A stretch of DNA of 64,000 nt from Escherichia coli (lineage in GTDB: Bacteria > Pseudomonadota > Gammaproteobacteria > Enterobacterales > Enterobacteriaceae). Shown piece by piece: positions 46,301 through 49,300 of the stretch; within the stretch, counting starts at the first letter, position 1, and each line of letters opens with the position of its first letter. The stretch is from assembly GCF_029227855.1 (NCBI RefSeq), contig NZ_CP074356.1. One strand, 5' to 3'. Made by a program: the position numbers.

Positions 46301-49300
46301 GAGGCCTGGCTGATTGTTTCCCCCGAAGTCACCAAGATCATGGCCAAAGAACAAACGGACCGTACGACATTAGATCTGTTCGCGCACGAGCGTCGACCGG
46401 GACGACCGAAAACTAATCCGCTTTCGCGCGATGAACAGCTGCGTATTAATAAACGCAACCAGCTAAAACGCGACAAAGTACGTGGCCTTAAGCGTGTCGA
46501 ACTGAAGCTGAACGCGGAAGCTGTCGAGGCGCTGAACGAGCTGGCGGAGTCGCGCAATATGAGCCGTAGCGAACTGATCGAAGAGATGTTAATGCAGCAA
46601 CTGGCGGCGCTGCGTAGTCAGGGCATCGTTTAAATTTCCACTTTCATGTAGCACAGTGTGCAGTCCTGCTCGTTTGCTGATTCCGCAAGACTGCCTGTTC
46701 TGCTATGATTGCCTTTATCCGTGGGCAATTTTCCACCCCCATTTCAATAAGTTTCAAGAGGTTATTTCACTCATGGCTATCACTGGCATCTTTTTCGGCA
46801 GCGACACCGGTAATACCGAAAATATCGCAAAAATGATTCAAAAACAGCTTGGTAAAGACGTTGCCGATGTCCATGACATTGCAAAAAGCAGCAAAGAAGA
46901 TCTGGAAGCTTATGACATTCTGCTGCTGGGCATCCCAACCTGGTATTACGGCGAAGCGCAGTGTGACTGGGATGACTTCTTCCCGACTCTCGAAGAGATT
47001 GATTTCAATGGCAAACTGGTTGCGCTGTTTGGCTGTGGCGACCAGGAAGATTACGCCGAATATTTCTGCGACGCCTTAGGCACCATCCGCGACATCATTG
47101 AACCGCGCGGTGCAACCATCGTTGGTCACTGGCCAACCGCGGGCTACCACTTCGAAGCGTCAAAAGGTCTGGCTGATGATGACCACTTTGTCGGTCTGGC
47201 TATCGACGAAGACCGTCAGCCGGAACTGACCGCTGAACGTGTAGAAAAATGGGTTAAACAGATTTCTGAAGAGTTGCATCTCGACGAAATTCTCAATGCC
47301 TGATGTGATGCGGCGTAGACTCATGTCTACGCCGTATTAATAGATAATGCCAATCAAAATAATTGCTACAAATTTGTAACTTTTGCTGTTGTACCTGTAC
47401 AATGTCCCAGTGTTCAAGTGGCCTTGCCGTTGTAAATGTAAGCAGTGCCACGTTTTTATTAACAATATTTGCCAGGGACTTGTGGTTTTCATTTAGGCGT
47501 GGCAATTCTATAATGATACGCATTATCTCAAGAGCAAATTCTGTCACTTCTCCTAATGAAGTGAACCGCTTAGTAACAGGACAGATTCCGCATGACTGAT
47601 AACAATACCGCCCTAAAGAAAGCTGGCCTGAAAGTAACACTTCCTCGCTTGAAAATCCTGGAAGTTCTTCAGGAGCCGGACAACCATCACGTCAGTGCGG
47701 AAGATTTATACAAACGTCTGATCGATATGGGTGAAGAAATTGGTCTGGCTACGGTATATCGCGTACTGAACCAGTTTGACGACGCTGGTATCGTCACCCG
47801 CCACAATTTTGAAGGCGGTAAATCCGTATTTGAACTGACACAGCAACATCACCACGATCACCTGATCTGCCTCGACTGCGGCAAGGTAATCGAATTTAGT
47901 GATGATTCCATCGAAGCGCGTCAGCGTGAAATTGCCGCAAAACATGGCATTCGCCTGACTAACCACAGTCTCTATCTTTACGGTCACTGTGCCGAAGGCG
48001 ATTGCCGCGAAGATGAGCACGCGCACGAAGGCAAATAAGCCAGCCGGAACGAGAAAAGCCAACCTGCGGGTTGGCTTTTTTATACACGGGAAATAATAAA
48101 TATCCTCCGGCATAGCCGGAGGTTTTTCAAATGCGCCTATAAGGCTCTCTTACCAGCCGCGCCCTAACAGGCGCACACGATCTGACATTTGCATCCAACT
48201 TCGTTACTTACGGCCCGTAAACGGGCTGCCCGGATAGGGAATCGATAACTGCTCTCCCATTTTATCCTCTTCAAGCTGGTGCTTTATGTAATCCTGTATC
48301 TTCGCCGTGTTCTTACCCACCGTATCGACGTAGTACCCTCTGCACCAGAACTCCCTGTTCCTGTATTTGAATTTCAAATCACCAAACTGCTCGTAAAGCA
48401 TCAGACTGCTTTTCCCTTTCAGATATCCCATAAAGCCGGATACGCTCATTTTGGGCGGGATCTCCACAAGCATATGGATATGATCTGCACAGCATTCAGC
48501 TTCCAGAATCCGTACACTTTTCCACTCACACAGCTTTCTCAAAATACTGCCTATTGCTCTACGCTTCTCTCTGTAGAACACCTGTCTTCGGTATTTTGGC
48601 GCAAAAACTATGTGATATTTACAGTTCCATCGGGTGTGCGCTAAGCTCTTTTCGTTCCCCATTGGGACCCCCTTTTGATTTCTTGTTTGACACTTGCAGT
48701 TGCCAGACCGCAAGGTGTTTTAACAAATCAAAAGGGGTTTTAATAACTGGCTTAAAGCTGAAAGCTTTCCGGAACCCCCAGCCTAGCTGGGGGTTTTCTG
48801 TGCACAAGAAAAGCGAGAGTTACAGCTCTCACTTATTTGTTATTACTGCGAATTTCCTGCCAGACCTTATCACAGTCGGCTTTTACCGCCTGATCATTTC
48901 CGGTTTGCGTTGCGCGCAGACACTGCTGATAATCCAGTACGCGGACACTTTCCTGATCGGCAAACTGCTGATGTTGTTTCTCTTTCTTCAGCACGTTTAA
49001 CACGCTCTGGCAGGCTTCAATTTTTTCTGGCGAACCTTGTGCGGTGTTGATACAGGCGCTGTATGCCTCTTTCAGACGGCTGTCTTCCTGTGGCGCGGTT
49101 GATTGCGCACAAGCCACCAGCCCCGATGCCATCATGGCGATGAGAATCAGTTTTTTCATAGCAAATTCCTCAAACGTGCGGCAGGCACAAAACCTGCCGC
49201 GTCGGGCATCAGAAGATGGTGAATGGTGCGATTACCATAAATTTCACGTCACGCTCATCCTGGAAGATGTTGCCGTAACCACCGCCCCAGCTTGGGATGT

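Follow-up and report, generated by a model that had tools for sequence, protein, structure and literature searches.

Introduction

In Escherichia coli K-12, the gene for the ferric uptake regulator (fur) is preceded by a short open reading frame (ORF), uof, and the published mechanism for this leader combines translational coupling of uof and fur, repression by the small RNA (sRNA) RyhB, and the iron-responsive decoding of a UCA codon at position 6 of uof (Vecerek 2007, via the summaries in PMC7534054, PMC7466049 and PMC6191717; PMC11550727, like PMC7534054, gives a summary of the mechanism). This study focused on the corresponding region in a stretch of 64,000 nucleotides from E. coli (assembly GCF_029227855.1, contig NZ_CP074356.1), referred to below as the window. 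Positions 47.3–48.1 kb are, with high confidence, the E. coli fldA-uof-fur locus, and the part flagged in an earlier reading of the same DNA (the original prediction) is the known fur leader, intact and subject to layered control.

Reviews of the K-12 experiments state that uof is translated and that translation of fur depends on it (PMC7534054, PMC7466049), and the UCA codon at position 6 is reported to need ms2i6A-modified tRNA-Ser, hence MiaB (PMC7466049). Transcription adds further features. The Fur box of K-12 overlaps core promoter elements of fur (PMC7867234), and a promoter, Pfur, lies within the uof ORF with a separate promoter, Puof, upstream of it, giving rise to 'fur' and 'uof-fur' mRNAs (PMC6191717), while fur is also transcribed by read-through from ybfE and fldA (PMC4161252). 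In Yersinia enterocolitica, fur is found without uof (PMC7867234).

Results

Identity and Integrity of the Locus

The plus strand at 47.3–48.1 kb carries, in order, fldA, an intergenic leader of 288 nt, and fur. The flavodoxin 1 gene, fldA (46773–47303, coordinates mapped from the annotated locus of E. coli JNEC-KY178), matched NCBIfam NF006735 with 400 bits, and fur, taken from the ORF list at 47592–48038, matched NF006999 with 309 bits (cutoff 146). Between them on the same strand lies uof (47513–47599), the 28-codon leader ORF of fur, here in a Pro14 allele; the translated peptide, MIRIISRANSVTSPNEVNRLVTGQIPHD, aligned over its full length (1–28 of 28) to the NCBIfam entry NF011344, 'fur leader peptide', with 81.3 bits against a curated cutoff of 71. 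Over the 341 nt that run from the fldA stop into fur, the window is 99% identical to K-12 BW25113, with four differing positions, one of them within uof, where 86 of 87 nucleotides are identical and there is no frameshift or stop. The order fldA, uof, fur is the same in K-12 and in JNEC-KY178, and the window is 99.99–100% identical to the latter except for a 705-bp IS200 insertion. Of 5426 complete E. coli genomes, 5424 match an 801-nt stretch of the locus with at least 95% identity, and in essentially all of the 5424 the RefSeq labels under the match read 'uof: fur leader peptide', fur and fldA. No Rfam family was found that covers the fur leader.

The original prediction held that the uof-fur arrangement is conserved here, and proposed an alignment with the K-12 leader as a check, with a frameshift or stop in uof to be taken as evidence to the contrary. 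Since uof shows neither, and differs from K-12 by one substitution, that evidence is absent, and near-identity to K-12, the RefSeq labels and the NF011344 match all bear the claim out. The leader is already known, and is an ordinary control region with one harmless base change. Its mechanism would be the one established in K-12, carried over by near-identity of sequence.

The uof Frame and the Start of fur

From its ATG at 47513–47515, uof runs for 28 sense codons to a TGA that ends at 47599, and overlaps fur by 8 nt (ATGACTGA, read in the uof frame as CAT GAC TGA). It had been stated that the uof stop codon overlaps the fur ATG, but the latter occupies 47592–47594 and the uof TGA 47597–47599, with two bases between them. 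The length of 28 codons, also given in that reading, is correct when counted (plus TGA) from the ATG at 47513, but depends upon the choice of that codon. The same frame has no stop as far back as 47363, giving a mechanical ORF of 78 aa from a TTG and 65 codons from an ATG at 47402, so the figure of 28 follows the K-12 annotation of an internal ATG. The upstream ATG at 47402 sits on the end of a −10-like hexamer (TACAATG, 47398–47404), the same layout as the TATAATG found at the annotated start.

Codon 6 of uof is Ser-UCA (47528–47530, plus strand, from the codon list), to which PMC7466049 assigns a role in iron-responsive decoding, and iron-dependent decoding at this codon may be carried over from K-12. 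The window also includes the 5' end of miaB, at about 63727–64000 (mapped from JNEC-KY178), which is 16 kb downstream of uof and in the normal E. coli gene order; MiaB is the Fe–S methylthiotransferase that has been implicated in decoding this codon.

The translation initiation region of fur (47578–47594, plus strand) consists of an AGGA resembling a Shine–Dalgarno (SD) sequence at 47578–47581, followed by a spacer of 10 nt and then the ATG. The GGA of the SD sequence was predicted to pair with UCC at 47587–47589 in each of the three transcript models that were folded. This small helix is invariant in 63 distinct sequences and is therefore uninformative for covariation. An outer helix around the fur start, pairing 47571–47575 with 47595–47599, was also considered and rejected as unsupported (70.6% of cells paired, no covariation). 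A weak SD sequence, a GGA predicted to be masked, and an overlapping upstream frame are consistent with a need for coupling, without being proof of it.

Fur Box and Promoters

The Fur box, TATAATGATACGCATTATC, lies at 47509–47527 on the plus strand, is identical to that of K-12 and agrees with the 19-bp consensus GATAATGATAATCATTATC in 16 of 19 positions. No other site with three or fewer mismatches occurs in the whole window, where 0.01 would be expected by chance (dinucleotide shuffles of the window). Its first six bases are also the −10 hexamer (TATAAT) of Pfur, and its positions 5–7 are the ATG of uof, which straddles the end of the hexamer (TATAATG). The claim that a Fur box overlaps the uof start is accordingly upheld by the exact string, although the start coordinate that had been given, 47505, falls 4 nt upstream of the box. 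The core promoter Pfur (47486–47514, plus strand) scored 10 of 12 in a promoter scan, with a −35 hexamer TTTTCA at 47486–47491, a 17-nt spacer and the −10 hexamer at 47509–47514. Transcription would start near 47521, about 7 nt past the −10 hexamer and downstream of the uof ATG, in agreement with the position of Pfur within the uof ORF in K-12 (PMC6191717).

Further upstream on the plus strand, at 47374–47403, the scan revealed a sigma-70-like promoter (TTGTAA, 18-nt spacer, TACAAT; 9 of 12 matching) that is a candidate for Puof, and probably is Puof, which the literature places only as upstream of uof. Start sites in this study come from statements in PMC6191717 and PMC7867234 together with the promoter scan, their exact positions being inferred. 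In the same intergenic region there is a perfect 9-bp hairpin (GGCGTAGAC-TCAT-GTCTACGCC, 47312–47333), 9 nt past the fldA stop and without a T-run, which may be a weak terminator or a processing signal between fldA and the fur leader.

Because transcripts from Pfur start inside uof and have no uof start codon (PMC6191717, PMC7867234), they cannot translate uof, and coupling is limited to mRNAs that begin at promoters further upstream. Repression at the Fur box and coupling through uof are two separate layers that operate on different transcripts. The iron-dependent autoregulation proposed in the original prediction agrees with the published mechanism as named, but merges these two layers into one. 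Binding and repression by iron-bound Fur (Fe-Fur) at this box can be presumed from identity with K-12.

Complementarity to RyhB

Interactions between RyhB and the leader were scored as windowed hybridisation energy plus accessibility; a global RNAduplex calculation gave an unrealistic end-to-end duplex and was set aside in favour of the windowed score. The core complementary stretch, GAGCAAAUUCUGUC, lies at 47532–47545 on the plus strand within codons 7–11 of uof, and is identical to K-12. The windowed calculation placed the RyhB core (nt 37–48) on 47532–47546, GAGCAAAUUCUGUCA, with a hybridisation energy of −12.1 kcal/mol and a total of about −6 kcal/mol. G47534 and C47535 are predicted to pair with RyhB C45 and G44, and repression of uof/fur was reported to be lost when RyhB G44/C45 were mutated (PMC6191717). 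A second, weaker stretch at 47500–47519 on the plus strand was suggested by the model, in which RyhB 60–69 would pair with 47511–47519, including the uof AUG, and RyhB 70–73 with 47500–47503. The extended duplex that takes in the uof AUG has a hybridisation energy of −18.3 kcal/mol and a 12x12 internal loop. The published RyhB site extends into the terminator stem of RyhB, and the published duplex is described as not predictable (PMC3018821); the involvement of RyhB 70–73 in the model fits the remark on the terminator stem.

Conservation of the Leader across Enterobacterales

A search of species-representative genomes with a degenerate DNA pattern based on the Fur HHHDHLICLDCG motif retrieved 120 loci, of which 106 provided usable leaders. 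In the aligned Enterobacteriaceae, the −35 and −10 hexamers of Pfur, the left half of the Fur box that the latter shares (TATAATGAkACGCATT), and some 30 nt immediately preceding fur are conserved to near-invariance. An ORF of the uof type, with the same ATG, 28–29 codons, and ending in ...ATGQIPHD* at +8, was present in 25 of the 106 leaders. The carriers belong to Escherichia, Citrobacter, the Enterobacter cloacae complex, Leclercia, Kluyvera, Phytobacter, Pseudescherichia, Pseudocitrobacter, Siccibacter and Superficieibacter, and include Pluralibacter gergoviae. Salmonella enterica subsp. arizonae (L096) and diarizonae (L087) have lost 1 nt from the loop of a hairpin described below, leaving 16 codons and a stop 27 nt before fur, and Klebsiella oxytoca (L114) has a broken uof of 14 codons; the Salmonella and K. 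oxytoca leaders keep their promoter, Fur box and hairpin intact, as well as the initiation region of fur. In most Serratia, Yersinia and Pantoea the frame is cut to MRRN* or MRRK*, which accords with the reported lack of uof in Y. enterocolitica (PMC7867234). The statement that uof is conserved is true for E. coli and its near relatives, but not across the family. In the literature, nothing specific was found on uof in Salmonella or in ribosome profiling.

In seven species, an ORF in another frame begins at the same ATG and reaches fur with an ATGA overlap. Cedecea neteri, Enterobacter spp. Ag1 and Cy-643, Mangrovibacter and a Pluralibacter metagenome-assembled genome carry an ORF of 23–26 codons with its TGA overlapping the fur ATG in this way. 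In Enterobacter sp. R1, the ORF that this ATG opens shares the frame of fur and so extends it at the N-terminus.

A Conserved RNA Hairpin within uof

The middle of uof (47544–47564, plus strand) is predicted to form an RNA hairpin, with a stem UCACUUC/GAAGUGA (47544–47550 with 47558–47564) and a 7-nt loop (47551–47557). When folded singly, all 38 Enterobacteriaceae leaders were predicted to have a hairpin at the homologous position, the stem varying by genus (CACUUC/GAAGUG, ACUUCC/GGAAGU, CUCCC/GGGGG, GCCC/GGGC and CGCUCA/UGAGCG). A covariance model built from 13 sequences found 74 loci, and in their alignment, which is itself fitted to the model, nine of nine pairs show compensatory changes and 85.6% of cells are paired; the covariation score was reached by none of 500 shuffles, and slid controls were 27–51% paired. 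RNAalifold did not report the central hairpin from a MAFFT alignment of the 38 leaders, in which indels put its 5' arm out of register, but both per-sequence folding and the covariance-model alignment recovered it. The loop is hypervariable and holds codons 13–15 of uof, and the hairpin is kept also in species that have no uof ORF. This suggests that RNA structure constrains the middle of uof more than does the peptide sequence. The hairpin may serve as a platform for Hfq/RyhB, affect the stability of the mRNA, or maintain access to the fur initiation region. It may already have been depicted in structure-probing work on K-12.

A hairpin inside a short leader ORF that also includes the rare codons AUA, AGA and UCA could bring to mind a classical transcription-attenuation leader, where the position of the ribosome selects between terminator and antiterminator. 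However, there is no intrinsic-terminator-like site in 47513–47592, the hairpin being followed by AACCGCUUAG and not by a U-run, and the ORF passes through the hairpin into fur instead of stopping before it. As there is no terminator, this reading was rejected, and its probability is close to nil.

Weighing the Role of uof

A more serious alternative is that uof exists mostly as a by-product of constraints of other kinds, with the ATG fixed by the −10 hexamer and Fur box, the middle by the hairpin, and the 3' end both by the initiation region of fur and by the N-terminus of Fur, where the MTD codons give TGA or TAA in the −1 frame. Control would then be exerted mainly by Fur at Pfur and by RyhB on the short Pfur transcript, and translation of uof would be a minor, lineage-specific addition. 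Several observations are in keeping with this. The TATAATGA motif is kept in 65 of the 106 leaders, well beyond the ORF carriers and including Serratia, Yersinia and Pantoea where only 4-codon ORFs follow; the part of uof with covariation is the hairpin, and its loop codons are hypervariable; and the start sites of Pfur lie inside uof.

Other findings likewise weigh against control through uof as the general explanation of this leader. The ORF is not conserved in Salmonella, K. oxytoca, Yersinia, Serratia and Pantoea (being frameshifted in Salmonella and K. oxytoca) despite a near-invariant fur initiation region. The ATG frame is open to fur in 33 of 65 leaders, compared to 30 of 65 for a control frame, and because there is no excess the comparative data alone give no evidence of selection on the frame. 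RyhB has been reported to act on the short Pfur mRNA, reducing it and not the uof-fur mRNA (PMC6191717), a result that fits poorly with a model based purely on uof initiation. The predicted energy of the RyhB interaction is also unremarkable, the best total being −5.9 kcal/mol, which was equalled or bettered by 19.5% of 200 dinucleotide shuffles. Examination of the RyhB pairing region had been proposed as a check; its complementary bases are there and identical to K-12, but since shuffled sequences score as well, the region can be described as present and not as independently demonstrated. The RyhB site of this leader cannot be recognised from energy alone. Lastly, ryhB is not encoded within the 64-kb window. 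Of 5426 complete E. coli genomes, 5424 encode RyhB, and in 5360 the sequence is at least 99% identical to the 90-nt RyhB sequence used here.

Against the by-product explanation, the K-12 experiments covered by the reviews cited above show both translation of uof and the dependence of fur upon it. In addition, the clade of 25 species that carry the ORF has accumulated many substitutions, yet its indels are in multiples of three, giving 28 or 29 codons, and the other-frame ORFs with an ATGA overlap in other genera suggest selection for translation into the fur start. On balance the by-product explanation is unlikely, and the leader of the window is better understood as the coupled uof-fur leader known from K-12. 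A related proposal about its history, that the conserved element within uof is the hairpin and not the frame, with uof coupling being a lineage-specific overlay upon an older structured leader, is put forward only tentatively.

The Ser14Pro Allele

The sole difference from K-12 within uof is a T to C change at 47552, which converts TCT to CCT and Ser14 to Pro. Of 5424 complete E. coli genomes, 393 (about 7%) contain the exact 60-mer around this C, so Pro14 is a common natural allele. Position 47552 is the second of the seven loop nucleotides of the hairpin, and as it falls in a hypervariable loop, with the stem energy unaffected, the change is tolerated. It is expected to be neutral. An effect on regulation could be imagined by way of the peptide, the RNA structure, or the loss of a UCN codon read by ms2i6A-tRNA, given that it is the only change in uof and that UCU to CCU leaves four, rather than five, codons starting with U. 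The Ser, Phe and Pro alleles are, however, predicted to form the same hairpin stem with the same energy (−8.5 kcal/mol), the RyhB interaction is barely altered in the predictions (−5.9 for the window and −5.7 for K-12), and codons 13–15 vary more between genera than any other part of uof. Codon 6, the one that has been tied to iron-responsive decoding, is intact. With the frequency of the allele also taken into account, a regulatory effect is very improbable.

Other Features of the Window

The IS200 copy (705 bp, 48101–48805) is inserted just past the fur terminator (stem 48058–48064/48069–48075, T-run 48076–48081), between fur and chiQ, and is absent from K-12 and JNEC-KY178. Its tnpA lies on the minus strand at 48204–48713, and a match to the Rfam family STnc490 was found within it (48672–48795, 146 bits). 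Further along the window, at 61549–62249, is a cluster of seven tRNA genes (Met, Leu, Gln x2, Met, Gln x2) located between asnB and ubiF, an ordinary E. coli layout.

Discussion

The control of fur in this strain can be pictured as a set of layers. Fe-Fur, bound to the box at 47509–47527, would repress its own proximal promoter Pfur, as expected from the box covering the −10 hexamer TATAAT. Longer transcripts, from Puof (probably 47374–47403) or by read-through from fldA/ybfE, would carry the uof AUG at 47513. Ribosomes translating uof from these would finish at the UGA at 47597–47599, five bases beyond the first base of the fur AUG, and in passing would open the small structure that masks the SD sequence and reinitiate at fur, which is to say by translational coupling. 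RyhB, made when Fur is iron-free, would pair around 47532–47545, and more weakly over the AUG, leading to less uof translation and hence less Fur. Finally, the UCA at codon 6 would tie the decoding of uof to the Fe–S enzyme MiaB. For this scheme, the window supplies identity with K-12, an unbroken uof frame with UCA as its sixth codon, the Fur box and promoter hexamers, and bases complementary to RyhB, and the K-12 experiments of the literature supply the coupling, RyhB repression, MiaB dependence and Fur binding. The result is useful mainly in showing that this strain keeps the textbook leader of the master iron regulator whole, its one change in uof being common and expected to be neutral, and it is of little further consequence.

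Several described systems resemble this leader in part. It differs from attenuators of the trpL type in having no terminator, the hairpin at 47544–47564 being without a U-run. In contrast to coupling of the ATGA type, the uof stop lies just past the fur start (ATGACTGA) and shares no bases with the start codon. The regulation of thrL and ivbL by GcvB (PMC7534054) is alike in that an sRNA targets a short upstream ORF and the effect is passed downstream by coupling, but here the core RyhB site is 20–33 nt inside the upstream ORF and not on its SD sequence. Autoregulation of fur in other Enterobacterales, as described for Pfur of Y. enterocolitica (PMC7867234), shares the Fur box placed over the core promoter and the fldA-fur synteny; in Yersinia, Serratia and Pantoea, which keep the TATAATGA motif and have ORFs of 4–14 codons with no uof, only this transcriptional layer is shared. 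The closest system is the uof-fur leader of E. coli K-12 itself (uof, b4637; Vecerek, Moll and Blaesi 2007; NF011344). The window has in common with it the place of uof between fldA and fur, the length of 28 codons, the 8-nt overlap ATGACTGA, UCA as codon 6, the Fur box and the bases complementary to RyhB; it differs from K-12 in its Ser14Pro allele and in an IS200 that sits downstream of fur, outside the regulatory region.

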